A DNA stretch of 64,000 bases from assembly GCA_964507055.1 (NCBI GenBank), contig CAZDOJ010000002.1, positions 687-64,686 of the forward strand. The letters are read 5' to 3'. Of the stretch, positions 30,841-46,009 are shown piece after piece; positions within the stretch are counted from its first letter, which is position 1, and each line of letters begins with the position of its first letter. The notes under the pieces are model-generated. The model was not told where the DNA came from. It saw only the letters and a program-made list of their open reading frames with translations, and did not search any database. The DNA is from an uncultured Gammaproteobacteria bacterium. GTDB lineage: Bacteria; Patescibacteriota; Microgenomatia; Levybacterales; UBA12049. The position numbers were made by a program, and so were the translations under genes.

Positions 30841-32691
30841 TTATCGACAAGCCATCTCTTTTTCATCGTAGGTAGTTTGGCAGCCTTTATCTCGAACACA
30901 TTGGTTGAATAAATCGCCACTTCTGCCATTTCGACAGAAGTTATAACATGCTTGACTCTCTATAACGACTGGTTCCATACATGCACCGTAGGTATTTTTA
31001 TAACCTTTTTGTTTGGCCAAACAATCAAAGTCGCTCTTTTTATTCAAATCTCCAATACTACATGCTGGCTCAGGATCTGCAGGTGCAGGATTTACTGGTG
31101 CTGGATCCGCAGGGGCTGGATTATTTCCTTTGCAAACGCCTGCTGAAATTTCAGCTGGAGTACAGTCATTTGGATTAGTTTGTCTATCTGCTGGTGCTTT
31201 ATAGTTTGGCGGATAAATCTTATTGGTATCTCGAGGAATCTCTGACTCTCCTGGAAGAGGTTTTTTGCCCGCAGGAACCTGGCTTGGTTGGCAGTAACCA
31301 AATTTTTCTACAGTATCTTTTGCACATGGAACTCCGAATTTATTTCGATACTGTGCATTATCTCTTGTCGCAGGAGCTGAATGATAGACAAAACATCCTG
31401 GTTGGCAACATCCATTAATAAGAGGGAAGTCACTTGCACAGCATTGGCCACTTTCGTTTGCACGATGTGATGGGCAGGATGGTTTGTATCCTATTGAGCT
31501 TCGTGGGTCAACACCTGGTGCAGCTGGCTTTGGAGGGAATGGATTTGTCTTTGGCTTAGCAGGGGATGGTGCTTTACACAATCCACTTGGAGGATTTACT
31601 GAAAGATCTACATATCCACTACAACATCCAGCCACATTATCTCCACTTTGACCATTTGGGATACATGCTTCTGCTTTGACTCCTGCATCATTTTGAGCCC
31701 CAATTGCATTGGCAACAATTTTTGCTCCAGCCACAGAAGGCTCATTGGTACTTGCCATATATTTAGCCGGTTGCGGGAATACTTGTTTGCCATCCTTATC
31801 AAACCACAACATTTCTACCGGACAGATCTTTGCACCAATGGCTCGCTTACAAAAATCTTTACAAGCATCACTATCAGGGGATGCTTTACAGAGTTGCTCG
31901 AGAATATCTTGTTCCTTTTGATCTAAAACAATATACTCATCACATTGTTGGTTTTCGCGTGCTTCACCAAGAACTGGACCAGAACATTGTCCGCCTTTAA
32001 ATATTTCACAATACTGACGACTCGTACAAAGAATATTCTTAGGATCTTTACTACAAAGTGCCTGGATATTGCTTTTGTCATTTGCGGTAAGAGTTTTTAC
32101 GCGGAGAGCTGTGCAGGCTGAACTTACGCGAACATTTGTGGCTTCTGTAATAGGGAGAGGTTGGCCATCGGTATTTGTGATGCCCGGTCCTACAACCCAA
32201 CCTTCACTTGGATCACCAGATTTGAACATATACGATGATTCTTTGCTGGTAAGGGTATCACCAGGATTAAGCGTCTTAGCTCCTTCCAATGGTTCAAAAG
32301 TTGCGATGTAATACTTTTTAAGTGACCCTGCAGCTATACCGTAATTTGCTATGTTAATTGGTAAATCTCCAATATTTTTATAGGTAAATGATCCTGAGAG
32401 GGTATCATTATAATAAATATTTTGCCCTACAAATTTTTGTCCATTCACCTTTATCAAACTTGCACCTTCTTGTCCCATACGGGTCCCACACAGTGTTGGA
32501 TCTGCTTCTCCTGTATGTAGACAACCAAAAATCGGGGGAGCATTAAATCCCTCTGCAAATTGCATGATACGCTGTGGCTGGAGGAGCGTAAAGACAGTCA
32601 ATGCCAGAATCGGCAACATGACGAAAAAGAAAAGCAAATTTCTTTTTTTATTCTTTACTTGTCTTGTATTCTTTTTTCTTAATTTAGCCAT
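30841..32691 (-). CDS. Secreted or membrane-anchored Cys-rich protein with a Pro/Ala repeat tract.
   Basis: N-terminal signal anchor. More than 40 Cys. PAPADPAPVNPAPADPEPA repeat. Confidence 0.4.
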   Translation of the reverse strand: MAKLRKKNTRQVKNKKRNLLFFFVMLPILALTVFTLLQPQRIMQFAEGFNAPPIFGCLHTGEADPTLCGTRMGQEGASLIKVNGQKFVGQNIYYNDTLSGSFTYKNIGDLPINIANYGIAAGSLKKYYIATFEPLEGAKTLNPGDTLTSKESSYMFKSGDPSEGWVVGPGITNTDGQPLPITEATNVRVSSACTALRVKTLTANDKSNIQALCSKDPKNILCTSRQYCEIFKGGQCSGPVLGEARENQQCDEYIVLDQKEQDILEQLCKASPDSDACKDFCKRAIGAKICPVEMLWFDKDGKQVFPQPAKYMASTNEPSVAGAKIVANAIGAQNDAGVKAEACIPNGQSGDNVAGCCSGYVDLSVNPPSGLCKAPSPAKPKTNPFPPKPAAPGVDPRSSIGYKPSCPSHRANESGQCCASDFPLINGCCQPGCFVYHSAPATRDNAQYRNKFGVPCAKDTVEKFGYCQPSQVPAGKKPLPGESEIPRDTNKIYPPNYKAPADRQTNPNDCTPAEISAGVCKGNNPAPADPAPVNPAPADPEPACSIGDLNKKSDFDCLAKQKGYKNTYGACMEPVVIESQACYNFCRNGRSGDLFNQCVRDKGCQTTYDEKEMACR

Positions 32692-32693
32692 AG

Positions 32694-33254
32694 CTACTGC
32701 AACATAGATGTTGGTATTAATGCATTGGTCATAATATGGATTACTCCGTTTTTGGTGTCTATATCATAAGTCTCAAAGTACGAATATCCATTGATGTTCC
32801 AATAGCCATTTGTTTTATTAAAGACTAATTTATCGCCTTGTATTGTTGTAAGTTCTAAGCCTTCTTTCAGGTCAGAAAAGTGATATTCGCCTTTAACAAT
32901 ATGAAACAAAAGGAACTCGCGTAATAAACCCTCTTGGTTTGGGTCACGAAGTCTTCCTGTTAAATCAGTAGAAAGCTTTCCAAAAGCCTGATCAGATGGA
33001 ACAAATACTGTATATGGTCCATTCTGATGAAGGAACGTATCAAAACCAGCAAGTCGTATAAGTGTATTAAATTGACGGGTTTTTTCGGAATAGGTTAAGT
33101 TGTCAGCGATATCGGATGAAGGACGCATTTGAATGCCATCGTATTCAATGATTGAGGTATTATGGTAAATCCAAATAAGTGCAGCAGGGATGAGTATCGC
33201 TAAAAGAATAACGATTATATAGACTGGTTTCTTTTTTACCTTTACTGTCATCAC
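32694..33254 (-). CDS. Fasciclin (FAS1) domain protein, membrane-anchored.
   Basis: GPYTVFVPSDQAFGKL and NGVIHIMTNALIP FAS1 motifs. Confidence 0.7.
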   Translation of the reverse strand: MMTVKVKKKPVYIIVILLAILIPAALIWIYHNTSIIEYDGIQMRPSSDIADNLTYSEKTRQFNTLIRLAGFDTFLHQNGPYTVFVPSDQAFGKLSTDLTGRLRDPNQEGLLREFLLFHIVKGEYHFSDLKEGLELTTIQGDKLVFNKTNGYWNINGYSYFETYDIDTKNGVIHIMTNALIPTSMLQ

Positions 33255-33315
33255 TTTATCTTATCTTAAGAAAAATAGAGAGTCAACGAGCTTCACCATA
33301 GTTGTGACCAATCCA

Positions 33316-33948
33316 TTATGGAGTTGGTTGGGCTGATGTTACTGCTGCCGTTGGGAAAGTCGTTGGAATACTGGTCGGAGATTTGTAGTTCGGTGGCATG
33401 ATCCCTGCTGTAGGTGCAGCTGTTGGAGCACCTGTCGGTACACCTGTAGGCGTACAAAATCCACCAATGACGAGCATTATATCCTTTGCACAACTGACCT
33501 TAAAGGCGTTCTTAAAGGGGGAGTTCTCACGAGTGAGGGGAGTTTGAATATATTTCGGTGTAGGTGTAGGCATATTAACTGGTCCTGAAGTGATTTTTCG
33601 GGCAGGAGCTTTTGTTGGAACTGGTGCTTTTGCAGCAGGGGCAAGATTAATAACGGGATTTGCTGGGGCCGCCGGTCCGGGTGCTCCTCCAGCACAATAA
33701 CCAGCACGGCCCGCTCCGTATGGAACACATGGTCCTGTCCCAACACATTGGTTATTTCCAGCCATATCACATCCTTGAGCCACGACTCTATTTACCTCTA
33801 GAGCATCTTTCTCTGCAGCAAACTGTCGTAGTATTTGTGATTGACTCAATGTAAATATAGTCAAGGCCAGAATAGGCAACATAATAAAAAAGAAAAGTAT
33901 ATTTTCTTTTTGTCTTTTAATAGTCTTTTTCTTTTTTATTTTGGCCAT
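33316..33948 (-). CDS. Secreted Pro/Ala/Thr-rich protein. Its N-terminal ~50 aa are paralogous to 30841-32691.
   Basis: The leader MAKIKKKKTIKRQKENILFFFIMLPILALTIFTL aligns with MAKLRKKNTRQVKNKKRNLLFFFVMLPILALTVFTL. Confidence 0.4.
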   Translation of the reverse strand: MAKIKKKKTIKRQKENILFFFIMLPILALTIFTLSQSQILRQFAAEKDALEVNRVVAQGCDMAGNNQCVGTGPCVPYGAGRAGYCAGGAPGPAAPANPVINLAPAAKAPVPTKAPARKITSGPVNMPTPTPKYIQTPLTRENSPFKNAFKVSCAKDIMLVIGGFCTPTGVPTGAPTAAPTAGIMPPNYKSPTSIPTTFPTAAVTSAQPTP

Positions 33949-33949
33949 A

Positions 33950-34501
33950 TTATTTAAGTTGACTTGGAGGTTTCATGAAGCTGGTAACTGTATGAATTAC
34001 ACCATTTTTACTTTCGACATTGTAAGTTTCAATGTATGAATAGCCGTTAATTATCCAATAATCTTTTGCTTTATTAAATTTGAGTTTCTCACCTTGGATA
34101 GTGGTTAATTCCATTCCATTTGTAATATCTTCAGCAAGATATCGTCCTCGAACTATATGATAGAGAAGCATTTGTCTGAGTGTTCCTTCTTGATCTGGAA
34201 GTTTCAAAGACTCGGTAAATTCATCAGAAAGGTTATTATACGCAGTATTTGTTGGTGCAAAGACTGTAAACGGACCAGGTTCATGAAGAATATCATCATA
34301 GCCAACTGATTCTAAAAGCGAGCCAAAACGATTTGTTTCTGGAGAATAGGAGAGGTTATCTGCAATATCCATAGAGGGACGCATATGCAGACCTTCATAT
34401 TCAATGGTCGATGGATTTGCATAAATAGTATATGCACCTACAGGAATAAAAATGAGAGGTAAAAGAATGATGATAATGAGTATTTTTGTTCGTAATTTCA
34501 T
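33950..34501 (-). CDS. Fasciclin (FAS1) domain protein, membrane-anchored. Paralog of 32694-33254.
   Basis: GPFTVFAPTNTAYNNL and NGVIHTVTSFMKPP. Confidence 0.7.
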   Translation of the reverse strand: MKLRTKILIIIILLPLIFIPVGAYTIYANPSTIEYEGLHMRPSMDIADNLSYSPETNRFGSLLESVGYDDILHEPGPFTVFAPTNTAYNNLSDEFTESLKLPDQEGTLRQMLLYHIVRGRYLAEDITNGMELTTIQGEKLKFNKAKDYWIINGYSYIETYNVESKNGVIHTVTSFMKPPSQLK

Positions 34502-34630: not shown

Positions 34631-35020
34631 TTATTTCAACTCGACAGTAGCTCCTGCTGCTGTAAGTTTTTCTTTTGCTTCGTCAGCTGTTTTTTTGTTA
34701 ACTTGGTTCAAAACTTCTTTTGGTGCCGCATCAACTAAGTCTTTCGCTTCTTTAAGACCCAATGCTGGGTTTAATTCACGAAGTGCTTTAATAACAGCGA
34801 TCTTTTGAGCTCCTGAGCTCGCAATGATAACGTCGAATGAAGTCTTTTCTTCTGCAGGTTCTGCATCAGCTGAGGCTCCAGCTGCAGGTGCAGCGGCGAC
34901 CATAGTAGCGGCAGCAGAAACTCCGAACTTCTCTTCAAGAGCTTTTACTAAATCTGAAAGCTCGAGAACTGACATCTCTTCAATTGCTTGCATTAATTCG
35001 TCTTTACTTAATTTTGCCAT
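34631..35020 (-). CDS. rplL: 50S ribosomal protein L7/L12.
   Basis: [34 protein letters not shown] ... [24 protein letters not shown]. Confidence 0.9.
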
Positions 35021-35069
35021 CTATAATCACCTCCTTTATGTTAGGGGACTAGATACTTGGGATTAAATC

Positions 35070-35618
35070 CTAAGCACTAGCTCCTTTCTTTTCTTTAATT
35101 GCATTAAGTGTCATTACAAAATTTTGGATGTTCCAACTAAGTGCTCGATGCAAACCTTGTACAGGTGCATTCATCTGGCCAAGAAGTCGTGCTCGAAGTA
35201 CTGGCAATGGTGGGAGCGTTGCGATCTTTACAACTTCTTTATCTGTTACGATACTACCTTCAATAAGTCCAAATTTGATTGTTGGAAGTTTGAAATCTTT
35301 GATAGTCTTTGAAAGAAGTTTTAATGGTTCAACGATATCGCCATAGATAAAGAGTGCTGCTGTTGGTTGTGTAAATTTATTTTTTTCAGCTTCTGTATCA
35401 ATTTTATCTGTAAGTGCTCGGAGTAAAAGCGTGTTCTTCGCTGCTACAAATTCTGCATCAACTTTCTTCAAACCCTTTTTCAAACCCTCAAGTTGTTGAT
35501 GAGTAAGACCTTGGTAGTTTGCAAAAACAATACCATTTGCTTTACCGACCTTTTCGATAAGTTCTGCAGCAATTGCTTCTTTTTTTAATCTGTTTTGCGA
35601 TGTATTTACGTCTGCCAT
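35070..35618 (-). CDS. rplJ: 50S ribosomal protein L10.
   Basis: L10-family sequence, located immediately upstream of rplL. Confidence 0.8.
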   Translation of the reverse strand: MADVNTSQNRLKKEAIAAELIEKVGKANGIVFANYQGLTHQQLEGLKKGLKKVDAEFVAAKNTLLLRALTDKIDTEAEKNKFTQPTAALFIYGDIVEPLKLLSKTIKDFKLPTIKFGLIEGSIVTDKEVVKIATLPPLPVLRARLLGQMNAPVQGLHRALSWNIQNFVMTLNAIKEKKGASA

Positions 35619-35775
35619 ATTGATAAAAAAAAGACACTCTCGAGGAGTGCCGTGAAGTTCAAATAAACTAATGTGGCTCCTCGGTTGGGCTTACTTTTAC
35701 GCCAACTGTCTTTGGAATAATTAGTATTATAGCAGGGAAGGGGAAAAGTGTAAAGGGTAGTAAGGTTTTAAATTC

Positions 35776-38148
35776 TTACTGGGATCCAAGTGCTTGTTGG
35801 ATTGCACTTTTATATGCATCAGATCTAGCTTGATTCACAGTGCCACTTTCAGTAATAAAGCCTAAGTAATCACGTCCAGAATAGCCGTTCATAGTAAACA
35901 TATGTATCTCTTTAACCCATGGTCTATCCTTTGCAATTTTAACAAACTCTGGCATTGCACTGATATATTCTTGTTCAGAAGATGCTCGTTGATCTGTTAA
36001 ATTCATTTCAGTAATAATGAATGGTTTGCCATTTCCTCCCGGTTTGGACCACGCCCAAGCCTTTTTTTCATCAAGAACACTTGCCATTTCACTTGGTGTA
36101 AAGTAGAGATGGATTTCAAATCCATCAGCTAATTCGTATAGGTCAGGTACAGCGGCAAGGACTTGTTCTTGCCAGGTATTACTATCTGGATCAAGTGCTA
36201 CATATATTTTTGCATTTGGATTTGCAGCATGCCCGGCGATAATTGCATCCTTCATAATTCGTCCATAGGAAGCAGGGTCAATATCTCCTCCACGGAACCA
36301 ATTTCCATATGGTTCATTCATCCCTGAAAATGATTCGACTGCATATTGTGCTTGGTCTGGCTTGTTAGCAAAGTATGTTCCTCCTGGTCCATATTTTTTC
36401 ACTGCTTCTGCCATCTTGTTGGCATAATCTTGTCGATGTTTATCGAGGGAGGATAATCCTTCACCATCATTGACACAAAGCGATAAGTGCATTCCTTGAG
36501 CAGCTAGGGCCGGCAAGCCACCATTTGCGTCTTCAATGTTCACTTCACCCAGACAATCACGTGTTCCATTAACACCAAGAAGTGATTTAGCTCTTGCAGC
36601 AGCTCCATATCCGACTACTCCTGTTGCTCCATAAATCTTTTGCCCTGCTGTAGGAGCTGTCGATGGATTTGTACTTGGAGTTGGGGAAGTCCCAAAGAGC
36701 GTAGGAGTTGGATCCTGTGTAGGTTGTGCTCCAGTTGTAGGCACAGTTGTTGGCTCCACAGCATTGGTTGGTTCAGGGCATGGTGAAGGATTGCCCGGAT
36801 CTGTTGGGAGTGGGACATTGCCCCCACGAAGGATGTATTCGATAAGCCAGATCAGGAACTTCATAAACCGTTCGATGAAACCACCACCACGACCATGCTT
36901 GTGTTTTTTATGTTTTTTCTTGTTATGCATGACACTGCTTGTGCTTTCTTGACACGGGTTTATTGAAGGATACGGTGTACTTGCTCCACCTGAGGGATTA
37001 ACACCACCGCTAGGGACTGTTGATGGGTTTGTAGCACCACCACTCGGTGCGGCAGAGGTCGAAGGATTAATTGGTGCACAAGGAGGTTCTCCCACGCCAC
37101 CGACACAATAAATGGTTGGCGTAATAAGTGAAGGAGCTGTAGTAATCTGCGTTCCTGTCGAAGGTTGAACTCCTCCTGCAACTGGTGTGTAGCTGTTCCA
37201 CTCTTTTAACACTCGAAGTTTCTCCCACGGAATACCATTCATTTGATAGTAATCGCTGGTAAATCCTACGCTTGGATAAGGATCAGGTTTATCCATTGGA
37301 TGTTCAAATTGGAATGCCATACCTGCACCGCCACAGTCGATAACATATGCACCGTATTTTTGTAGTGCTTTTGCTACTGTTTTTTCACCTGCCGACATAG
37401 AGAGAGAATCAACATTTACAGATGGATCAAGCTGAATACGTGCACCTTCGGGGATTGCTCCAGCTCCACTATACTTTCCATCAGTTTTAACTGCAGGGAA
37501 GCGAATTTCATCAACGGCACAATAACTAGACGAGAATACTAAAGCATGCTCAATATTTCCTTGTTGCATTTCGTATGTTCTGACAATTCCAGCCAAACGT
37601 GAAGTTCCAGCTCCAATTGCTGAATTTTCAGGGGACCCTCGTCCGTCACCATCAAGGGGCAGAATTCCTCCCCAATTAGTCGTGGCTTTATCGTTTTTAT
37701 AAACCCAGAATTCATAACTTTTTCTTGAAGATAAATCAACAATCACCATTTGTCCGTCTGAGCCGGGAGCTTGCTTCGCATCGTCTGGGATTGGGACTTG
37801 TTCTGTCGAAATACCACAAGTACCCCAACTCTCAGTACAATTTATGTTATATTTGGGTGTATTTGCATCAGCGAAATATATAGGAGTACCGAACTCATAC
37901 AGGTCCGCAACCTTATCTCCACCGGCTAATGTTTGAACCATCTCAGCACTTTTCGGATCCAGTTGTACATTTGTGCCAATAGGCTGGTTCCATGCACTAT
38001 CATCTGCAAAAGGTCTTCCAGCATTTGGAGTCATATTTGTCGAAGCTTTACTGCGGTTATCTTGTTGTTGAAATACTGAGAAAATAGTGAGAGGAATTGC
38101 TAATGCAATTAATAGAGTAGGTATCAGGATATTAGGTTTTCTTCCCAT
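35776..38148 (-). CDS. Secreted modular protein: QQQDNRSKA leader, unknown N-terminal domain, shared cassette, and a C-terminal clan GH-A (GH5-like) TIM-barrel glycoside hydrolase.
   Basis: Leader FSVFQQQDNRSKAS. Putative acid/base GMNEPYG and nucleophile FIITEMN motifs, with FEIHLYF between them. Confidence 0.55.
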   Translation of the reverse strand: MGRKPNILIPTLLIALAIPLTIFSVFQQQDNRSKASTNMTPNAGRPFADDSAWNQPIGTNVQLDPKSAEMVQTLAGGDKVADLYEFGTPIYFADANTPKYNINCTESWGTCGISTEQVPIPDDAKQAPGSDGQMVIVDLSSRKSYEFWVYKNDKATTNWGGILPLDGDGRGSPENSAIGAGTSRLAGIVRTYEMQQGNIEHALVFSSSYCAVDEIRFPAVKTDGKYSGAGAIPEGARIQLDPSVNVDSLSMSAGEKTVAKALQKYGAYVIDCGGAGMAFQFEHPMDKPDPYPSVGFTSDYYQMNGIPWEKLRVLKEWNSYTPVAGGVQPSTGTQITTAPSLITPTIYCVGGVGEPPCAPINPSTSAAPSGGATNPSTVPSGGVNPSGGASTPYPSINPCQESTSSVMHNKKKHKKHKHGRGGGFIERFMKFLIWLIEYILRGGNVPLPTDPGNPSPCPEPTNAVEPTTVPTTGAQPTQDPTPTLFGTSPTPSTNPSTAPTAGQKIYGATGVVGYGAAARAKSLLGVNGTRDCLGEVNIEDANGGLPALAAQGMHLSLCVNDGEGLSSLDKHRQDYANKMAEAVKKYGPGGTYFANKPDQAQYAVESFSGMNEPYGNWFRGGDIDPASYGRIMKDAIIAGHAANPNAKIYVALDPDSNTWQEQVLAAVPDLYELADGFEIHLYFTPSEMASVLDEKKAWAWSKPGGNGKPFIITEMNLTDQRASSEQEYISAMPEFVKIAKDRPWVKEIHMFTMNGYSGRDYLGFITESGTVNQARSDAYKSAIQQALGSQ
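36690..37130 (-). repeat. Copy 1 of the shared ~140-aa Cys/polybasic/hydrophobic cassette (conserved at nucleotide level).
   Basis: LITPTIYCVGGVGEPPCAPI ... PYPSINPCQESTSSVMHNKKKHKKHKHGRGGGFIERFMKFLIWLIEYILRGGNVPLPTDPGNPSPCPEPT. Confidence 0.8.
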
Positions 38149-38201
38149 AGATAATAAGTAGTTCTAGTTTATATAAAAAATGGGGGTAAATACAAGTGTA
38201 A

Positions 38202-40205
38202 CTAGCGGCCAAGTGTGTTTATGAGAGAAGTATAAGCAGGTTTGGGTTGGAAATTAGAATCAAACATCAACGGATTTTGTCCCGAAAGCCATGTGTGTCC
38301 ATCGTAAAGTCCCCACGTTGTTATACCTGTGCATCCATTCTGTTTGCAAGCTGTCCCAAGTTCTGCATATCTACCGGCTTGATCGTCAATATTGATAACA
38401 TCAAGTTCAGTGATTTCAGCTTTTACTCCAGCTTCAGTAAGTCGTTTGATATTTGCACCGATTTCTGTACCAGTTCCTGGATAATCTCCCGCTGAATGCG
38501 TTTGGAGGCCGACTCCATTAATTGGGATCCCACGTGCCTTAAAGTCTTTTACCATATTGTAGACTGCATCAGATTTTGCTTTTTTATTCCCACCGCGATC
38601 GGCGATTCCTTCAGTCCCATAATCGTTATAGAATAACTCTGCATTTGGATCTGCTTCATGTGCCCATTGGAACGCTTTTGCAATGTAATCATCTCCAAGT
38701 TTTTGTTTCCAGACAGTATCTCTTAATGAACCATCATCATTAAATGCTTCGTTCACCACATCCCATTGTGCAACTTTTCCTTTATATCTTGTGACGACAG
38801 TTTGTATATGGTTTTTTAGTGCTGTTTCAGCTTCCGCATTACTTAATCCATCAACCCAGCCTGGTACTTCAATATGCCAAACGAGTGTATGGCCCCGAAC
38901 TCGCATATTATTTGCTTGTGCATAGTTCACTATTTTATCTGCACCGTCCCAATTAAACTGCCCTTGAGTTGGTTCAAGGGGACCAAACTTCATTGCATTT
39001 TCAGGGGTGAGGGAATCGAATTTATAGGTTTTTAATGTGTTAGTAAATGTTGCATTGTCGAGTTGGTCTGGTTCTATGGCTGCTCCCAAACGTACAGTCC
39101 CTGTTGAGGGGGCTGTTGTTGGGATTGTTCCAAAGAGCGTAGGGGTCGGATCCTGTGTAGGCTGTGCTCCCGTTGTCGGAACAATTGTTGGCTCCACGGC
39201 ATTGGTTGGTTCAGGACAAGGTGAAGGATTTCCTGGATCTGTTGGGAGTGGAACATTGCCACCACGAAGGATGTATTCGATTAACCAAATGAGGAATTTC
39301 ATAAACCTTTCGATGAAACCACCGCCACGACCGTGCTTATGTTTTTTATGTTTTTTCTTGTTATGCATGACACTACTTGTACTTTCTTGGCATGGGTCGA
39401 TTGAAGGATACGGCGTACTTGCTCCACCTGAAGGTGTAACACCACCAGTGACACCTGGCGTTCCATTGCCAGGAGTACCTCCACCAGTACTCGGAGTTGT
39501 TGTTCCAATCGGAGCACAAGGAGGTTCGCCAACACCACCGACACAATAGATTGTTGGTGTGATGAGTGTGGGAACAGGCTGTGTGGGTTGCACTGTTGTA
39601 GTTGTTGCAGGAATTGATTGCAAACAAGTCTTGGATTGGGGATCAAATACATTACCAGAAAACACTTCACGTCCTGCAGGAGGATTTACTTCAACTGCTG
39701 TTGTTTCTTTCGTCCACTGATTCTCACACTGAATGACACTATCTCCGGAATTGGTATCGCTGGTCATCCATATATCGATATGATATTTCTGACCGCTAGA
39801 CCAATCTGATATACATTGGGCACAGGTATCTTCCATGACGCCGTATTTTTTGAGAAAAGGAATATATACTTTTGTGCCAGCAGGAAATTCATTTGGATCG
39901 GTCGCAAATGTGACAGGATCTTCAAATGTTCCTACACCTCCTGCGGATTGATGAATTCCGGGAAGGGCAATATTTGCACTTGGAGGATCATTGTCTGGCC
40001 AGCCATAGAATGTTACCTGCATGTCTATTGTTTCAGTGGCTACTGTCTTTGCTGCCAGTGTTGATTCTTTTGGATTATCTTGTTGGCTATTTCGTTGCTG
40101 TAAATCTGCGTTATACTGTTGCGTTAGAGAATGAAGTGTAATGACTGGAACTATGACAATAGTGGCGAAAAGTATAAGTAATAAATGAGTCTTTTTCATA
40201 GTCAA
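38202..40205 (-). CDS. Secreted modular protein: N-terminal DPBB-fold (RlpA/3D/expansin-like) domain, shared cassette, and a C-terminal GH10 endo-1,4-beta-xylanase domain.
   Basis: GH10 blocks GHTLVWH, WDVVNEAFNDDGSLR, ITELDV, ITTWGLYDGHTW. N-terminal VTFYGWPDNDPP ... TKVYIPF. Confidence 0.75.
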   Translation of the reverse strand: MTMKKTHLLLILFATIVIVPVITLHSLTQQYNADLQQRNSQQDNPKESTLAAKTVATETIDMQVTFYGWPDNDPPSANIALPGIHQSAGGVGTFEDPVTFATDPNEFPAGTKVYIPFLKKYGVMEDTCAQCISDWSSGQKYHIDIWMTSDTNSGDSVIQCENQWTKETTAVEVNPPAGREVFSGNVFDPQSKTCLQSIPATTTTVQPTQPVPTLITPTIYCVGGVGEPPCAPIGTTTPSTGGGTPGNGTPGVTGGVTPSGGASTPYPSIDPCQESTSSVMHNKKKHKKHKHGRGGGFIERFMKFLIWLIEYILRGGNVPLPTDPGNPSPCPEPTNAVEPTIVPTTGAQPTQDPTPTLFGTIPTTAPSTGTVRLGAAIEPDQLDNATFTNTLKTYKFDSLTPENAMKFGPLEPTQGQFNWDGADKIVNYAQANNMRVRGHTLVWHIEVPGWVDGLSNAEAETALKNHIQTVVTRYKGKVAQWDVVNEAFNDDGSLRDTVWKQKLGDDYIAKAFQWAHEADPNAELFYNDYGTEGIADRGGNKKAKSDAVYNMVKDFKARGIPINGVGLQTHSAGDYPGTGTEIGANIKRLTEAGVKAEITELDVINIDDQAGRYAELGTACKQNGCTGITTWGLYDGHTWLSGQNPLMFDSNFQPKPAYTSLINTLGR
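39140..39570 (-). repeat. Copy 2 of the shared cassette.
   Basis: Identical polybasic-hydrophobic core to copy 1. Confidence 0.8.
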
Positions 40206-40237
40206 TTTGAAAATAATGTATCTACAAAGAAATTAAA

Positions 40238-41329
40238 CTAATTCTTTGGAGACATGCATGTTCCCGTAGCTTGATTCCAAATAGGATTTGGATCTACTGC
40301 AAGGTTTGCTGGAGGGTCGATAATAATTTGTTCATTACCAGATGGGGTGAGTGATTCTTCACATTGTATAACTGATTCACTATCTGAAGGATTTCCTACG
40401 TAGAGATCAACCATAGTTACTGCACCACATCCATCAGGAGCTGTCCATGAAACAGCACATTCGTCTTCACGAATAAAGTATTTTTGGACACGAGGGACAT
40501 AGATTTTCTGTCCAAATGCATATTCACCAGGACCAGCAGGGGAGGCAAATGTAAGTGGGTCTTCATATGATCCTGTCCCTCCAGCCTCTTGATGGATAAC
40601 TGGATTTGCAATTGCCTTTGAACCCTTTGGATCATTATCATATGAACCATAAAATGTAATCTTTACAGTTGCCTGAGTTCCACTACCTGTAGAAGGGGAC
40701 ACAGATGGAGAAACTGTTGGAGCCGTAGTTGTCCCAAATGTAGTTGGTGTTGGATCTTGTGTCGGTTGAGCTCCACCTGTTGGTTGGGTTGTAGGTTGTG
40801 GTTCTGTTGTTGGCTCAGGGCAAGGATTTGGAGTTCCTGGATCTGTTGGTGCAGGTACGCTACCGCCTCGAAGAATATATTGAATGAACCAAAATATAAA
40901 TTTAAAGAATCGTTCGAAGAATCCACCACCTCGACCTTGCTTGAACTTCTTTTTCTTTTTGTTATGCATGACACTGTTTGAACTGTCAGTATTACATGGA
41001 TCGACTGAAGGATATGGAGTACTTGCTCCACCTGTTGGATTTGTTACACCGGTAGGAGGAGCTGTAGAAGGTGAAGTACTTGCTCCGTTTGTCGGTGCTG
41101 TCGTTGAGGTTGGTGCCATGGTCGCACATGGAGCGGATCCTACGCCTCCAACACAATAAATTGTTGGTGTGATAAGGGTAGGAGCCATTGCTTGCAAAAC
41201 TGCTGTTTGTTGATTCTCACTAGCAGCTGCTTTACTGCGGTTGTCTTGGTTTTGCGATACAGAAAAAATAGTGAAAGGGAGGGCGAATAATAAAAAGAGG
41301 GTAGAAAGTAATAAGAATTTTTTCTGCAT
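40238..41329 (-). CDS. Secreted protein: QNQDNRSKA leader, a diverged copy of the shared cassette, and a C-terminal DPBB-fold domain.
   Basis: Leader FSVSQNQDNRSKAAA. Cassette SVMHNKKKKKFKQGRGGGFFERFFKFIFWFIQYILRGGSVPAPTDPG. C-terminal VKITFYGSYDNDPKG ... QKIYVPRVQKY. Confidence 0.6.
   Translation of the reverse strand: MQKKFLLLSTLFLLFALPFTIFSVSQNQDNRSKAAASENQQTAVLQAMAPTLITPTIYCVGGVGSAPCATMAPTSTTAPTNGASTSPSTAPPTGVTNPTGGASTPYPSVDPCNTDSSNSVMHNKKKKKFKQGRGGGFFERFFKFIFWFIQYILRGGSVPAPTDPGTPNPCPEPTTEPQPTTQPTGGAQPTQDPTPTTFGTTTAPTVSPSVSPSTGSGTQATVKITFYGSYDNDPKGSKAIANPVIHQEAGGTGSYEDPLTFASPAGPGEYAFGQKIYVPRVQKYFIREDECAVSWTAPDGCGAVTMVDLYVGNPSDSESVIQCEESLTPSGNEQIIIDPPANLAVDPNPIWNQATGTCMSPKN
40759..41185 (-). 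repeat. Copy 3 of the shared cassette (most diverged).
   Basis: See the parent CDS. Confidence 0.7.
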
Positions 41330-41401
41330 CTTACTTATATCGTATCCAAATTAAGGCGGCGTTACAATAGTTGCTTACAAAATAAATTGTACTTGTGAAA
41401 T

Positions 41402-43846
41402 TTATTTCTTGTACATGTGGACCCAATCTACTTCCATCTTACCTTCTTTAACTGGAGTTTGACCGGTGAGATTATCAAGTTGAATTGTTTGGTGCATTGA
41501 AACATTTGGATTTGATCCTTGGCCATCGGTTGAATAGATTTCTTGGCCATCAACATATCCTTTGAACCCAGCAGCTGTCCATTCAAAACCATAGACATGC
41601 CATTGAGAAATATCTACATCTTCTTCATGACTGAAACAATTTTGTGAAGCATTGCCAACACAATGGAGGAATACACCCATACCACTTCCAATATTTGACT
41701 CAAAGTAATCTAATTCACCGTCATTCCAAACATCAGTGTCTGGCCAAAGAATTAATACAGGGTGAGGTGCTGATCCACTCGTTCCTGTAGAATATGCTCG
41801 CATTCTGACTTCCCAGTATCCATATTTTTGTGCAAAGTCAGAAGACATACCACATGTTGATCCATCCGCGAGTTGTGTTTGCGTCAACATACCGTTACCA
41901 AATGTACATTGTGAAGATTTACGTCCACCGCCAACTACGGTATCACCACCGCCGCCGTCATACGCTGTCCATCCTGAAGGCATACTTGTACCATTAAAAT
42001 CTTCGCATTTACTTATCGTATATCCGGTGACTGGGGCATTTGGTGTAGCAGCTGATCCGCCACATGTTGTTGCCGTTGGATCTCCAGTTCCGCCTCCGGT
42101 TGAAGGAACAGGGGAAGCAGCTGTAGAAATAGTTGGAACCGCTGTTGTTCCGAATGTTGTAGGCGTTGGATCTTGTGTTGGCTCAGCTCCTCCTGTTGGT
42201 TCAGTTGTAGGCTGTGGCTCTGTTGTTGGTTCAGGACAAGGGTTATTCGGATCAGTTGGAAGTGGGACATTCCCGCCACGAAGGATATATTCAATTAACC
42301 AGATCAGGAACTTGATGAATCGTTCGATAAAGCCACCACCACGACCATGTTTGTGCTTTTTATGCTTTTTCTTATTATGCATGACACTATTTGTACTTTC
42401 TTGGCATGGTTCAACAGTGGAAGGGTATGGTGTGCTTGCACCACCAGAGGGGTTTACTCCACCAGTAACACCAGGAGTTCCTGAACCTGGAGATCCACCA
42501 CCTGCACCTGGAGTAGTTGTTCCATTAATCGGAGCACAAGGAGGTTCACCAACGCCACCGACACAATAAATTGTTGGTGTAATTAGGGATGGGGATGCAC
42601 TGATTGATGGATTTGCTCCACCGGTTGCACCAAATTCATATGCACCCATATCAATGCCACTGCCAGCAGGTCGAGCTTTATTCTCTTTATCAAATGTTGG
42701 AGCACCGTTAGCATCACCTTTATCAATAGCAGGGGAGCCTGCTGCAAGATGGTAGTCGCCATTACCTACGAAACCTGTCGTCGTAACAAGATTATTACCC
42801 ATTTGCAGGCCATTACCACTTGGATTACTCGTAAAGATGTTATTAAAGACAGGATTCGATCCACTTGGAGCTTCGACTACATTAATTGGCTTATCCTCAT
42901 CAATAGTATTGTTATAAACGCGGATATCTGACAATGTTCCTCCAGATTCTACCCAGAATGTTATACCGCCTCCAGCATTACCGTAGATAACATTATTAAA
43001 GATATCAATATTTCCAGCTTTTTTTGGATTCTCACTTCCTCCATAGGATGTTTCAGCAGCAATCATGATGCCGGCTTTACTTCCTTCGGTTGTGCCATAG
43101 GAAGTATTATTGTAGATTTTAATGCCACTTGAGCCATCGACATAAATGTTTGGACCGCGATTACCAAAGACTACATTGTCGTGAATAGTTCCGTTAACTT
43201 CACCTGCACCATTGTATTTAGCATCAATTCCTTCTTCGCCATTGTCATGAACTTGGCAATTCTTGATCTCAAAGCCTGTTGAGCCGCCAGTAATACTCAA
43301 AGCTTCGCCGTCAGCACCTGTACCTTCAGCATTTGTTCCGTGGATATTACAACCATCAACAACGACGTTTTTACTGCCAGATATTATCAATCCACCATCT
43401 TGTGAGCCATCAATCTCAAAGTCTTTTAGTACTAAACCATCTGCACCGTTGACTTGTGCACCAAAGCTGCTTGAGCCTTTTACTGTAATCCCGATGAGCG
43501 TAACACTCTGACCAGAGATTTTCATTGTGCCATTGGTTATTACGCGTCCTCCAGTTGCTTGAACTGTGACATTGCTTGCAGATATATCAAGTGTTTCATT
43601 ATATGTGCCTGCTGCGACATTGACAGTACCTCCTGATCCTGCTGATTGGATTGCAGAATTGATTGAGCCTCCGGGTTGAACGTCAACTGTTACTCTTGCG
43701 GATGCAGCTTTACTACGATTATCCTGTTGTTGGAGTGCTGCAATGACCGTAATAGGTAGAACGAACATTGTAACGAGAATAGCAAAAAGAACTTTACGAT
43801 TTTTCATCCGTATCTTTATGTTATATACAAAACTCGTGTAATACAA
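41402..43846 (-). CDS. Secreted modular protein: QQQDNRSKA leader, right-handed parallel beta-helix (pectate-lyase-like) domain, shared cassette, and a C-terminal GH16 beta-glucanase domain.
   Basis: Leader IAALQQQDNRSKAAS. PbH1-like repeats (NCQVHDNGEEGID, IHDNVVFGN, IFNNVIYGNAGGG). GH16 catalytic motif WNDGELDYFESN (ExDxxE). Confidence 0.7.
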   Translation of the reverse strand: MYYTSFVYNIKIRMKNRKVLFAILVTMFVLPITVIAALQQQDNRSKAASARVTVDVQPGGSINSAIQSAGSGGTVNVAAGTYNETLDISASNVTVQATGGRVITNGTMKISGQSVTLIGITVKGSSSFGAQVNGADGLVLKDFEIDGSQDGGLIISGSKNVVVDGCNIHGTNAEGTGADGEALSITGGSTGFEIKNCQVHDNGEEGIDAKYNGAGEVNGTIHDNVVFGNRGPNIYVDGSSGIKIYNNTSYGTTEGSKAGIMIAAETSYGGSENPKKAGNIDIFNNVIYGNAGGGITFWVESGGTLSDIRVYNNTIDEDKPINVVEAPSGSNPVFNNIFTSNPSGNGLQMGNNLVTTTGFVGNGDYHLAAGSPAIDKGDANGAPTFDKENKARPAGSGIDMGAYEFGATGGANPSISASPSLITPTIYCVGGVGEPPCAPINGTTTPGAGGGSPGSGTPGVTGGVNPSGGASTPYPSTVEPCQESTNSVMHNKKKHKKHKHGRGGGFIERFIKFLIWLIEYILRGGNVPLPTDPNNPCPEPTTEPQPTTEPTGGAEPTQDPTPTTFGTTAVPTISTAASPVPSTGGGTGDPTATTCGGSAATPNAPVTGYTISKCEDFNGTSMPSGWTAYDGGGGDTVVGGGRKSSQCTFGNGMLTQTQLADGSTCGMSSDFAQKYGYWEVRMRAYSTGTSGSAPHPVLILWPDTDVWNDGELDYFESNIGSGMGVFLHCVGNASQNCFSHEEDVDISQWHVYGFEWTAAGFKGYVDGQEIYSTDGQGSNPNVSMHQTIQLDNLTGQTPVKEGKMEVDWVHMYKK
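42166..42586 (-). repeat. Copy 4 of the shared cassette.
   Basis: SVMHNKKKHKKHKHGRGGGFIERFIKFLIWLIEYILRGGNVPLPTDPNNPCPEPT. Confidence 0.8.
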
Positions 43847-43877
43847 GTATTATTTTAGACTTTCTTTATCTTTAAGA

Positions 43878-44015
43878 TCATCTCGGTTCAATAAGAAATG
43901 GCTCCACGGTTTGTGCCTTGGTTCTATTATCTTGTCCTTGAAGTGCCATAAATACGGCGAATGGAATGACCAGAAGAGAAAGTAAAAGAAGAATAAGAAT
44001 TTCTTTGCGTTTCAT
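43878..44015 (-). CDS. Leader-only mini-ORF (45 aa): signal-anchor helix plus QGQDNRTKA motif, then stop.
   Basis: Manual translation of the minus strand: MKRKEILILLLLSLLVIPFAVFMALQGQDNRTKAQTVEPFLIEPR*. It is below the 60-aa cut-off of the ORF track. Confidence 0.4.
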   Translation of the reverse strand: MKRKEILILLLLSLLVIPFAVFMALQGQDNRTKAQTVEPFLIEPR

Positions 44016-44068
44016 GAACTATAACTATCGTAGCTGAAGAAATCTAGTCTTTCAAGAGAAGGGGAGTA

Positions 44069-44899
44069 TTACAAAGAAGCTGTTTCTATCTTTAGTCCTG
44101 GTGACATTGTGGATTTCAAGGTTACATTCTTAATATTCTTTACTTTAACTGCACTTACAGCTGTTTTGATGTTATCAGCTAATTTTTTATCACCAAATGA
44201 AACTTTACCTACTGCCATATGAAGAATAGGGAATTTAGCTTCAGTTTTGAAATTAATTTGTCCACCAGCAAACTTCTTTGCTGCTTCCTCAGGTTTTGGA
44301 GTCACTGTTCCATTTTTTGGATTTGGCATAAGTCCTCGTGGTCCAAGCACACGTGCAACTCGTGCAAGTTTTGGCATAGAATCAGGTGTCGCGATCAACA
44401 CATCAAAATCTACTTTTCCAGCTTCAATTGCTTTAATTAATTCTTCAACAGCTTTTGGATCTTCAGAAGCATTTGCAACTACAACTCGTGTCTCTTTACC
44501 AGTTCCATGAGGCAATACGACATTTCCATTGATTCCTTTTTCATTTGTATTAATGTGAAGTTCGACCGTTTCATCAAACTTTGCTCTTTGGAGCTTTGGA
44601 AGTAATTCGAGTGCTTCCGCTAAAGCGTATTTTTTATTCTTATCAACTTCAGATGAAACTTTATTGTAACTCTTTGAGTGTTTTACTTTCTTTTCAGCAG
44701 TTTGCTTTACGTAGTTTTTCCCTTTTTCAGGTTTTGATTCCGGAGATTCAGTTACTTCAGCTGTTGCTACTTTTTCATCAGCAGCTTTTGCCGCTGCTTC
44801 TAATCCAGCTTTTTTTGCTTCAGCCTTTTTCTCAGCTCGTAGCTTTTCTTTATTTTCTTGTTCTTCGTCTCCGACTGTTTTGACTCTAATTTTTCCCAT
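44069..44899 (-). CDS. rplA: 50S ribosomal protein L1 with a ~95-aa Lys/Glu/Ala-rich N-terminal extension.
   Basis: L1 core GKVDFDVLIATPDSMPKLARVARVLGPRGLMPNPKNGTVT. N-terminus KEKLRAEKKAEAKKAGLEAAAKAADEK. Confidence 0.85.
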   Translation of the reverse strand: MGKIRVKTVGDEEQENKEKLRAEKKAEAKKAGLEAAAKAADEKVATAEVTESPESKPEKGKNYVKQTAEKKVKHSKSYNKVSSEVDKNKKYALAEALELLPKLQRAKFDETVELHINTNEKGINGNVVLPHGTGKETRVVVANASEDPKAVEELIKAIEAGKVDFDVLIATPDSMPKLARVARVLGPRGLMPNPKNGTVTPKPEEAAKKFAGGQINFKTEAKFPILHMAVGKVSFGDKKLADNIKTAVSAVKVKNIKNVTLKSTMSPGLKIETASL

Positions 44900-44910
44900 A
44901 ATATCCTTTC

Positions 44911-45333
44911 TTATTCTACTGCGATACCCATTGATCGTGCAGTTCCTGCTACGATTCGAGCACCCATTTCGACATCATCTGTATTCAAATCTTCAAGTTT
45001 TGTCTCAGCAATTTCTTTTGCTTGAGCCATTGTTAATGTTGCATGCTTTTCTCGTCCTGGTTTTTGGCCACCTTTATCTTTACCGATTGCCTTTTTGATC
45101 ATTTCAGCAACTGGTGGTTTTTTCGTAATGAAATCAAATGTACGATCTTCGTATACTGTGATAACAACAGGGATAACATTTCCCTTAAGTTCAGCTGTCT
45201 TATCGTTATACGCTTTAACGAACTCCATGATATTCAAACCATGAGGTCCAAGTGCTGTACCAACAGGTGGTGCTGGTGTTGCTGCTCCTGCTGGAAGAGC
45301 AATTTTAATTAATGTTTTAATTTTCTTTGCCAT
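44911..45333 (-). CDS. rplK: 50S ribosomal protein L11.
   Basis: [32 protein letters not shown]. Confidence 0.9.
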
Positions 45334-45340
45334 AGTGTTA

Positions 45341-46009
45341 TTAGATCTTCTTAACTTGTAAGAAGTCGAGTTCTACTGGAGTTTCACGTCCAAAGATACT
45401 TACGAGAACTTTAACTTTACCTCGAGCGTCATCAATGGATTCGATTGTACCTAAGAATTCACTGAAAGGACCGTCTGTAATCTTCACAGCTTCACCAACA
45501 ACAAATTGTACTTTGTACATTGGTTCCTCGAGTTGCATAAACTTCTGGATTGCTTCAACTTCTTTTTCAGAGATTGGAGTTGGTTTGTTACCAGCACCAA
45601 TGAATGAAGTAACACCTTGTGTACTTCTGACCATGAACCAAGTTTCATCGTCAAGCTTCATCTTTACCAAAACATATCCTGGAAAGATCTTTTCTTTAAC
45701 GGTTTCTTTTTTGCCTTGTGAAACTTTAATTGTATTTCGTGTAGGAACGATGATATCAAAAACTCGATCTGTGAACTTCATCGCTTCAACACGCTGTTTA
45801 AGTGATCGCTCTACTTTGTTTTCGTGTCCAGCGTAGGTATGAATGATGTACCATCGTGCACCTTCTGAAGCTTTTGCTCGTGCATCAGCATCTTCTTGTG
45901 CTTTCTTTGCAGCATCATCTGCGATTACATCTTCGACAGGAGTTTCTTCCTGTACTTCAGTAGCCTCTACTTCTTGTTCGTCTTTAACTGTTTGTTTTGT
46001 GTGATCCAT
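45341..46009 (-). CDS. nusG: Transcription termination/antitermination factor NusG with an acidic N-terminal extension.
   Basis: [25 protein letters not shown] (NGN domain). C-terminal KOW ([25 protein letters not shown]). Confidence 0.85.

Follow-up and report, generated by a model that had tools for sequence, protein, structure and literature searches.

A four-gene array between rplA and rplJ

The window analysed here, a stretch of 64,000 nucleotides (nt) from contig CAZDOJ010000002.1, contains four tightly packed minus-strand genes (P1 to P4), which lie between rplA and rplJ and are co-oriented with the ribosomal-protein genes. Each gene encodes a leader and a cassette of about 149 amino acids (aa), referred to below as the connector, to which different head domains are joined. 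Comparison of the four genes with each other and with their relatives reveals domain shuffling around this novel, conserved connector, and the connector itself takes part in recombination. The original prediction, made from the sequence of the window, had proposed four different domain orders around a common cassette; the open reading frames (ORFs) and all four cassettes were found as described. The genes, their boundaries and their leaders are as follows (HMM, hidden Markov model; AF2, AlphaFold2; DPBB, double-psi beta-barrel; GH, glycoside hydrolase).

35776-38148, minus strand: P1, 790 aa; leader, domain X, cassette, GH-A-like C-terminal domain (ORF list, AF2 model)
38202-40205, minus strand: P2, 667 aa from TTG or 665 aa from ATG; leader, DPBB-like domain, cassette, GH10
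40238-41329, minus strand: P3, 363 aa; leader, cassette, DPBB-like domain
41402-43846, minus strand: P4, 814 aa from TTG or 801 aa from ATG; leader, beta-helix with choice-of-anchor Q, cassette, GH16
34631-35618, minus strand: rplJ and rplL, downstream boundary of the insertion gap (synteny)
44069-46009, minus strand: nusG, rplK and rplA, upstream boundary of the gap (Pfam labels of identical genes)
38041-38148, minus strand: leader of P1, in which QQQDNRSKA comes after a hydrophobic helix (direct-repeat family D4)
41225-41329, minus strand: leader of P3, similar to that of P1
43700-43807, minus strand: leader of P4, similar to that of P1

Public gene calls start P2 at an ATG at about 40199, two codons 3' of the TTG of the longest ORF, and P4 at an ATG at about 43807, 13 codons 3' of the corresponding TTG. 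Protein P0001 of public collections is identical to P1; an exact look-up of the P1 sequence returned no record. The leaders of P1, P3 and P4 share 63-75% nt identity over 76 nt and that of P2 differs; the N-terminal helices in the AF2 models of P3 and P1 coincide with the leaders. The L11 protein of the source organism falls into the same 90%-identity cluster as a protein of Candidatus Levybacteria, and the cassette family member P0017 stems from GCA_013816255.1. Judged by its sequence, the organism is Levybacteria-like and belongs to the Microgenomates of the candidate phyla radiation (CPR).

Domain composition of the four proteins

When the predicted domains were compared with profile HMMs, GH10, GH16 and the beta-helix passed the Pfam thresholds, and the DPBB and GH-A calls stayed below them and draw on fold-level and transitive evidence. 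Overall, the calls proved essentially right. The domains were placed as follows (pLDDT, predicted local distance difference test).

38220-39104, minus strand: GH10 catalytic domain of P2 (Pfam PF00331, E=9.9e-100; motifs WDVVNEA and ITELD)
41420-41908, minus strand: GH16 domain of P4 (Pfam PF00722, 32.1 bits against a cut-off of 22; GELDYFE, an ExDxxE motif)
42632-43585, minus strand: beta-helix and choice-of-anchor Q of P4, aa 88-405 (Pfam, NCBIfam)
39621-40031, minus strand: N-side DPBB-like domain of P2, aa 59-195 (E=1e-23 to the C-domain of P3)
40241-40678, minus strand: C-side DPBB-like domain of P3, aa 218-363 (AF2 model and Foldseek)
35779-36591, minus strand: C-domain of P1, a probable clan GH-A (beta/alpha)8 glycosidase (NEP and ITEM motifs, 102 residues apart)
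37174-38031, minus strand: domain X of P1, aa 40-325 (AF2 pLDDT >95)

The GH10 domain of P2 scored 334 bits against a cut-off of 22.1 and covers positions 9-309 of the 311 in PF00331. Its translation holds WDVVNEAF and EITELDV; in GH10 enzymes, the acid/base glutamate lies in an NE motif and the nucleophile in TEL/TELD, and the P2 motifs were assigned accordingly. The N-terminal part of P4 matched the Pfam families PF13229 (Beta_helix, E=1.8e-15, 57.3 bits against 25.9) and NosD (E=2.9e-8, 33.9 bits against 23.6) as well as the NCBIfam models para_beta_helix and choice_anch_Q (NF041518, E=8e-13).

As had been proposed, the DPBB-like domain stands on the N-side of the cassette in P2 and on the C-side in P3, and the two domains are homologous (37% identity, E=1e-23). 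No profile of the DPBB clan in Pfam scored above threshold for either of them. The sole Pfam match was the 3D domain, in P2 only (E=0.033, 14.8 bits against 23.8), and a search of PDB sequences with a profile of the domain gave nothing significant, only noise. In the AF2 model of P3, computed with 47 homologues, pLDDT exceeds 90 over this domain. Its top 12 Foldseek matches in the PDB are all double-psi beta-barrels, with weak E-values (best 0.026), and its neighbours include bacterial expansins, kiwellin, loosenin, cerato-platanin, VAT-N, Ufd1 and the N-domains of other AAA-ATPases. The DPBB call is therefore probably right, at the level of the fold only.

The C-domain of P1 remained below the Pfam cut-offs for GH5 (E=0.0095, 15.9 bits against 23.5) and Glyco_hydro_cc (E=0.01, 15.8 bits against 21). 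It is linked by BLASTP (E=3e-6) to the C-domain of P0033, another cassette protein, which passes the Glyco_hydro_cc threshold. The top Foldseek matches were GH10, GH5, GH51 and GH128 enzymes at E>=0.05, obtained with a low-confidence model (pLDDT 35-68), and a PDB sequence search yielded noise only. Taken together, membership of clan GH-A is likely.

Domain X belongs to no Pfam family. The Foldseek matches listed for the P1 model are all TIM barrels spanning 121-273 columns, so that no PDB neighbour of X is evident among them. About 100 clusters homologous to X were found, including proteins of Acidimicrobiia, Gaiellaceae and Thermoanaerobaculia, and in these outside homologues its partners are fn3, malectin, SLH, dockerin or ricin modules. 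The near-invariant residues of X include D131, H201, R237 and Q239. X is probably an uncharacterised secreted enzyme fold.

The connector cassette

The cassette occurs in exactly four copies in the window (tblastn, E=1e-44 to 1e-126), and an HMM scan of all window ORFs gave no fifth copy.

36688-37134, minus strand: cassette of P1, aa 339-487 (tblastn, alignment, HMM)
39126-39572, minus strand: cassette of P2, a mosaic with a P4-like 5' side and a P1-like 3' side, breakpoint near 39441
40730-41182, minus strand: cassette of P3, the most divergent copy (70% aa identity to P1)
42146-42592, minus strand: cassette of P4, a 5' side resembling P1/P2 joined to a P3-like 3' side, breakpoint near 42224, immediately past PCPEP

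The other copies are 70-87% identical to that of P1 at the aa level. From the N- to the C-terminus, the cassette comprises the motif TPTxYC..G..PC, a linker rich in Pro, Thr and Gly, the motif PC....S, a run of Lys, His and Arg, a Gly hinge, a strongly amphipathic helix of 20 residues, the motif P.PTDP...PCPEP and a second, Pro/Thr-rich linker. The core has invariant Cys, GGGF.ERF and the helix; in 84 of 96 copies, the helix is preceded by exactly three Cys and followed by one. On average, the helix has an Eisenberg hydrophobicity of 0.40, a hydrophobic moment of 0.59 and 3.6 charged residues; its polar residues are confined to one narrow face, leaving about 70% of its surface hydrophobic. The segment ahead of the helix contains 7.6 basic and 1.5 acidic residues. 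In the AF2 models of P3 and P1, the cassette is disordered except for this one helix.

The original prediction had called the connector novel, and this held: the cassette matched no Pfam family at E<=10, Dockerin_1 (PF00404) included, and no NCBIfam model, and the literature that was found does not describe such a module. Two known types of element were considered and rejected. A transmembrane segment, which would need at least about 18 uncharged hydrophobic residues, is unlikely because the helix is charged and because the resulting topology, with the glycosidase heads in the cytoplasm, is implausible. A C-terminal sorting signal of the LPXTG or PEP-CTERM type does not fit a cassette that is mostly N-proximal or internal, and the order of elements is also mismatched, the cassette having a basic run and then a helix instead of a motif, a helix and a basic tail.

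Exchange of heads at syntenic loci

The original prediction had suggested that new enzyme combinations are generated around the cassette, and alternative combinations of head and cassette were indeed found at the same locus of related genomes (L001, L007, L009 and a JGI contig). L001 (OZ246394.1) is a closed 1.6-Mb chromosome whose flanking genes are 80-84% identical to those of the window. Just two cassette genes, LA and LB, occupy its rplA-rplJ gap. LA contains the beta-helix, the cassette and the DPBB-like domain in a single gene, which aligns to P4 from its 5' end through the cassette (77% nt identity) and to P3 from mid-cassette to its 3' end (73%). LB encodes X, the cassette and a Polysacc_lyase domain; its X is the orthologue of P1 X (94% aa identity, dS 2.2, like the genome background; dS and dN denote synonymous and nonsynonymous divergence), and the homology between P1 and LB ends just after PCPEP.

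In L007, a metagenome-assembled genome (MAG) of a Levybacteria member, rplA is followed by a cassette-GH16 gene, an X-cassette-BSP-ricin gene and rplJ. On the JGI contig an X-cassette-Peptidase_A4 gene lies next to rplA, and in L009 a GH26-cassette gene does. Thus, the gene adjoining rplJ has kept X and the cassette and carries four unrelated C-heads in four genomes: GH-A-like in the window, Polysacc_lyase in L001, BSP and ricin in L007, and Peptidase_A4 on the JGI contig. The same variability was seen at a second locus with tandem cassette genes in more distant relatives, in which dprA is followed by a GSDH-cassette gene and, further on, by an X-cassette gene with or without GH114. The protein P0032 (GSDH, cassette and polysaccharide lyase) was considered as a direct fusion of two adjacent L011 genes and rejected, the lyase parts being 32% identical.

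Swapped architectures could in principle be chimeric joins made by an assembler at repeated sequence. A protein identical to P3 is encoded on five independent Logan contigs (L002-L006, runs SRR14271331-40), and these k=31 contigs all break in the P2 cassette, 855 nt into the gene, at the 35-nt repeat shared with P1. However, this is the longest exact repeat, far below read length and therefore too short to mislead an assembly of reads; contigs from five or more runs cover P4 and P3 without a break; and the same kinds of architecture recur in the closed L001 chromosome and in other MAGs. Misassembly was rejected on these grounds and is almost certainly not the explanation. Since the k=31 contigs end at the cassette repeat, many database proteins that consist of an N-head and a cassette only may be truncated at contig ends.

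Some further observations concern the gap itself. The interval between rplA and rplJ (35619-44068 in the window, 6177-11328 in L001, 3574-7790 in L007, 2745-4335 in L009) is a recurrent site: at least five related assemblies have from one to four cassette genes there, always co-oriented with the ribosomal-protein genes. In the window, there is no terminator-like site after rplA, and a strong promoter-like site with an extended -10 element (11 of 12 matches) lies just 5' of rplJ at 35754-35726. Read-through expression of the cassette genes from ribosomal-protein promoters is conceivable from this arrangement. In L001, a 176-aa cytidylyltransferase-like gene (6183-6713, Pfam E=3.6e-4), which is absent from the window, is inserted between rplA and the first cassette gene. 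The label of L001, 'uncultured Gammaproteobacteria bacterium', is probably wrong in view of its synteny with the window and of its L11 protein, which clusters at >=90% with Candidatus Levybacteria.

Recombination within the cassette

Segment-wise identities between the cassette copies of the window are discordant, and breakpoints, which the original prediction had expected to find along the genes, are visible in two of them. For the breakpoint in P2, the maximum chi-square was 35.2 (permutation p=0.0005), with 23:3 sites favouring P4 on the 5' side and 50:13 favouring P1 on the 3' side; P2 and P1 are 89% identical over 300 nt (39118-39417 against 36680-36979). For the breakpoint in P4, it was 22-25 (p=0.0005). 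A permutation test of the pairwise homoplasy index (PHI) type on the whole cassette gave p<=0.0005.

Further information was obtained from the site patterns of P1, P4, LB and LA, which may group by genome, by orthology or in a third way. Over the whole cassette, 24 nt sites grouped the copies by genome, 6 by orthology and 9 in the third way; in the core, the counts were 17, 2 and 3. Core third positions favoured genome over orthology by 7 to 2, and aa sites were divided 8, 0 and 0. In agreement with this, the core dS amounts to 0.71 for P1-P2 and 0.86 for LA-LB, and reaches 1.9-2.4 for cross-genome orthologues. The two cassettes of L007 share a 46-nt exact match and a tract of 93% identity. 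Cassettes within a genome are more alike than orthologues, and the copies have therefore recombined: they are under concerted evolution.

The idea that cassette and leader act as recombination substrates thus stands as far as exchange between cassette copies is concerned (17:2 in the core), and is not supported with respect to nt conservation as its driver. The term 'nucleotide-conserved' was too strong, as most synonymous sites are saturated and exact matches extend to 35 nt at most, between P1 and P2 (<=21 nt for all other pairs). Between P1 or P2 and P4, dN is 0.04-0.05 and dS 1.6-2.7. The present nt similarity results mostly from strong purifying selection on the cassette peptide.

Several points weigh against the recombination account. 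Synonymous sites are saturated between most cassette copies; PHI was not significant on the conserved blocks alone (p=0.5, four copies) or on third codon positions (p=0.59); part of the mosaic depends on alignments of low-complexity linkers; and exact tracts of <=35 nt are poor substrates for RecA today. As to the heads, P0032 shares only its architecture with the L011 gene pair, and the relationship of P4 and P3 to LA fits either a fusion by deletion or a fission by insertion. Since dS is saturated and the PHI signal is absent from conserved blocks and third positions, most of the exchanges are old.

The same data could be read as meaning that there is no meaningful ongoing recombination, the architectures having arisen long ago by separate fusions of heads to a widely used linker module and the nt similarity being only a by-product of purifying selection. 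Saturated dS between most copies at a dN of 0.01-0.05, the shortness of the exact matches and the PHI results would all be expected if this were so. It is nevertheless improbable, given that genomes with about 80-84% DNA identity differ in their heads at the same locus while the N-parts are orthologous, that cassette copies group by genome, that tracts of low synonymous divergence exist (dS 0.5-0.7 for P1-P2; a proportion of synonymous differences, pS, of 0.09 in L007), and that the maximum chi-square breakpoints are significant.

Concerted evolution by gene conversion between paralogues is known from bacterial surface-protein families, where antigenic variation is its usual outcome. The cassette genes resemble these families in that paralogues within a genome are closest to each other, segments are mosaic and unequal exchange leads to fusions and deletions. 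They differ in that the tracts are short and old, with largely saturated dS, and in that new enzyme combinations are the outcome.

The cassette family and its heads

When 1.84 billion representative proteins were searched exhaustively with the cassette profile, 79 clusters were recovered at E<=1e-3; a similar N-terminal leader is another common feature of the family. A word-index homology search with the cassette alignment found nothing, its 8000 candidates being swamped by low-complexity words, and a scan of metagenome contigs with cassette patterns confirmed no relatives. Because the flanked core is strongly conserved and its HMM recovers the 79 clusters, the cassette is a conserved module and not merely a spacer. 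The Pro/Thr-rich interdomain linkers of bacterial cellulases and xylanases, as in CenA and Cex of Cellulomonas fimi, are disordered, tolerate indels and are classic sites of shuffling. The cassette shares with them the disordered Pro/Thr-rich spacers between catalytic and accessory modules; in contrast, its linkers flank a strongly conserved core (dN 0.01-0.05 between paralogues).

Among 76 representatives, 34 Pfam families adjoin the cassette, including GH16, ricin, S8 subtilase, GH114, phosphoesterase, polysaccharide lyase, BSP, GH5, alginate lyase, Peptidase_A4, CAP and GH10. Positions were determined by flank clustering in 105 cassette proteins, i.e. the members from the profile search together with homologues of P1 and P3. 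The cassette follows directly after the leader in 59 of them, lies between two heads in 23 and has no C-side head in 17, some of which are genuinely C-terminal cassettes since a stop codon comes just after the fourth Cys. Each recurrent head was found with several different partners. The DPBB-like domain occurs 26 times on the C-side and once, in P2, on the N-side (27 homologous domains sampled); when on the C-side, it is paired with no N-head, with an S8 subtilase, with a beta-helix or with a metallophosphatase. Domain X is always on the N-side of the cassette and has six different C-side states, and the beta-helix, also always on the N-side, is combined with DPBB, GH16, alginate lyase or nothing.

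The family also provides the evidence on whether the connector might be a processing hinge, at whose polybasic run a subtilisin- or kexin-like protease would cut and free the N-head, so that two-headed genes would encode polyproteins and the helix would stay on one fragment. A run of Lys, His and Arg in a disordered region beside a Gly hinge could suit such a cut, and 6 of the 76 members are S8 subtilases in their own right, in which the cassette comes after a fervidolysin-type prodomain. We consider this highly improbable: 59 of the 105 proteins have no N-head to be freed, and the four conserved Cys and the conserved helix would be left unexplained.

Three minor features of the family were recorded. 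Two tandem cassettes are present in some of the proteins P0004, P0010, P0018, P0022, P0056, P0064 and P0069. The GSDH-cassette proteins (L010, 6202-7935; L012, 2048-3814) end in a small six-Cys domain, CxPSGQKCDATGAR.CC..ACV.NIN....P.DPGTCD, which may be a knottin-like binding module. Finally, the window encodes on the plus strand (29077-30492) an Alginate_lyase2 enzyme (E=1e-42) that lacks the cassette and contains a borderline Dockerin_1 segment (22.6 bits, cut-off 22.9); its close relatives among the alginate-lyase heads of other genomes, in P0012, P0039 and P0217, have the cassette instead.

Proposed mechanism and function of the connector

We propose that P1-P4 belong to a secreted modular enzyme family whose heads are exchanged by recombination and whose connector acts as a surface tether, and assign this account as a whole a probability of roughly 70%. 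The movement of the heads is the part that the comparisons show. Cassette genes are arrayed in tandem within a recurrent chromosomal gap, co-oriented with rplKA and rplJL. Recombination between cassette copies or in the flanking linkers homogenises segments within a genome by gene conversion, and it also joins what lies upstream of one cassette to what lies downstream of another, giving in-frame fusions, fissions and replaced C-terminal heads. Such joining accounts for the N-side position of the DPBB-like domain in P2 and its C-side position in P3, and likewise for the correspondence of the beta-helix and GH16 gene and the cassette and DPBB gene of the window to the single beta-helix, cassette and DPBB gene of a relative.

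As to its function, the connector may be an autonomous cell-surface tether or stalk, the reading that we favour and place somewhat short of even odds. Its polybasic run and amphipathic helix would attach to the anionic membrane or envelope surface, and the Pro/Thr linkers, stapled by disulfides, would keep one catalytic head or two at a distance from the cell. The role would be equivalent to that of the dockerin and SLH modules which replace the connector in homologous enzymes of other lineages: Dockerin_1 is found at the cassette position in homologues of the DPBB-like domain, and SLH or dockerin accompanies homologues of X. The connector itself is found at N-proximal, internal and C-terminal positions. 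In E. coli PBP5 (DacA), a C-terminal amphipathic helix is the membrane anchor of an extracytoplasmic enzyme. The cassette helix, with its high moment and basic flank, could similarly keep a secreted enzyme attached to the membrane from outside; it differs in being N-proximal, internal or C-terminal and embedded in Cys- and Pro/Thr-rich disorder, and its membrane binding is putative. Two considerations count against a tether: no partner protein was identified, and it would be redundant in the many leader-cassette-head proteins if their leader is an uncleaved anchor.

The connector might instead be an assembly module whose helices bundle or dock on a common, genome-specific partner to give a multi-enzyme surface complex, which would make it a true functional analogue of the cohesin-dockerin pair. 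Burial in a bundle would suit a helix whose surface is about 70% hydrophobic; co-evolution with one partner would suit cassette peptides that are near-identical within a genome and differ between genomes (8:0 aa sites); and dockerin takes the place of the cassette in homologues. Still, the locus yielded no gene for a scaffold or partner; gene conversion is sufficient to explain the similarity within genomes, as third positions also group by genome (7:2); and the P3 cassette clearly departs from those of P1, P2 and P4 (70% identity). We regard an assembly module as unlikely.

The comparison with cellulosomes made in the original prediction is apt for the modular logic only; a dockerin is found at the cassette position in homologues, and the cassette itself is no dockerin. 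Like the type I dockerin (PF00404) of modular glycoside hydrolases, the cassette is a small non-catalytic module common to many secreted enzymes, with Pro/Thr-rich linkers, a variable position and heads shuffled around it, and it occupies the place that a dockerin has in homologues of both the DPBB-like domain and X. Unlike dockerin, it has no duplicated Ca-binding segment and no Dockerin_1 match at E<=10, and possesses four conserved Cys, a polybasic run and predicted disorder with one amphipathic helix. Cohesin families were absent from the genes scanned with Pfam at and near 29-46 kb of the window and from those listed for the related loci; the search was not genome-wide. It is doubtful, though worth stating, that the cassette is a new CPR-specific display or assembly module, i.e. 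the basis of a minimal cellulosome-like exoenzyme array of ultra-small bacteria that is re-dealt by recombination. In such an array, the cassette would be a disordered stalk stapled by disulfides, whose polybasic and helix element would dock the enzymes onto the envelope or onto each other, and the recombination would take place between tandem cassette genes housed within the cluster of ribosomal-protein genes.

The connector is of wider interest as CPR bacteria (Patescibacteria) have tiny genomes and depend on other cells, and their deployment of extracellular enzymes is poorly known. A lineage-specific connector would offer a handle on the surface exoproteome, as it is common to at least 79 protein clusters and to about 34 kinds of domain with catalytic or binding roles (glycosidases, lyases, proteases, phosphoesterases and lectins). 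It is a candidate for a new principle of anchoring or assembly, and the gene family is a natural example of new enzyme combinations arising in a streamlined genome. The connector HMM together with the rplA-rplJ and dprA-GSDH loci provides concrete test sites in other genomes.

Neighbouring genes

Downstream of rplJ and rplL, the window contains on the minus strand (30841-34501) two tandem pairs, each consisting of a fasciclin gene (FAS1, Pfam E~1e-24) and a gene for a Cys-rich secreted protein (210 and 616 aa). Three such pairs are present in L001 (12386-18334). The pairs have a conserved leader of their own, MAK.(R/K)KK...NLLFFF.MLPILALT.FT.

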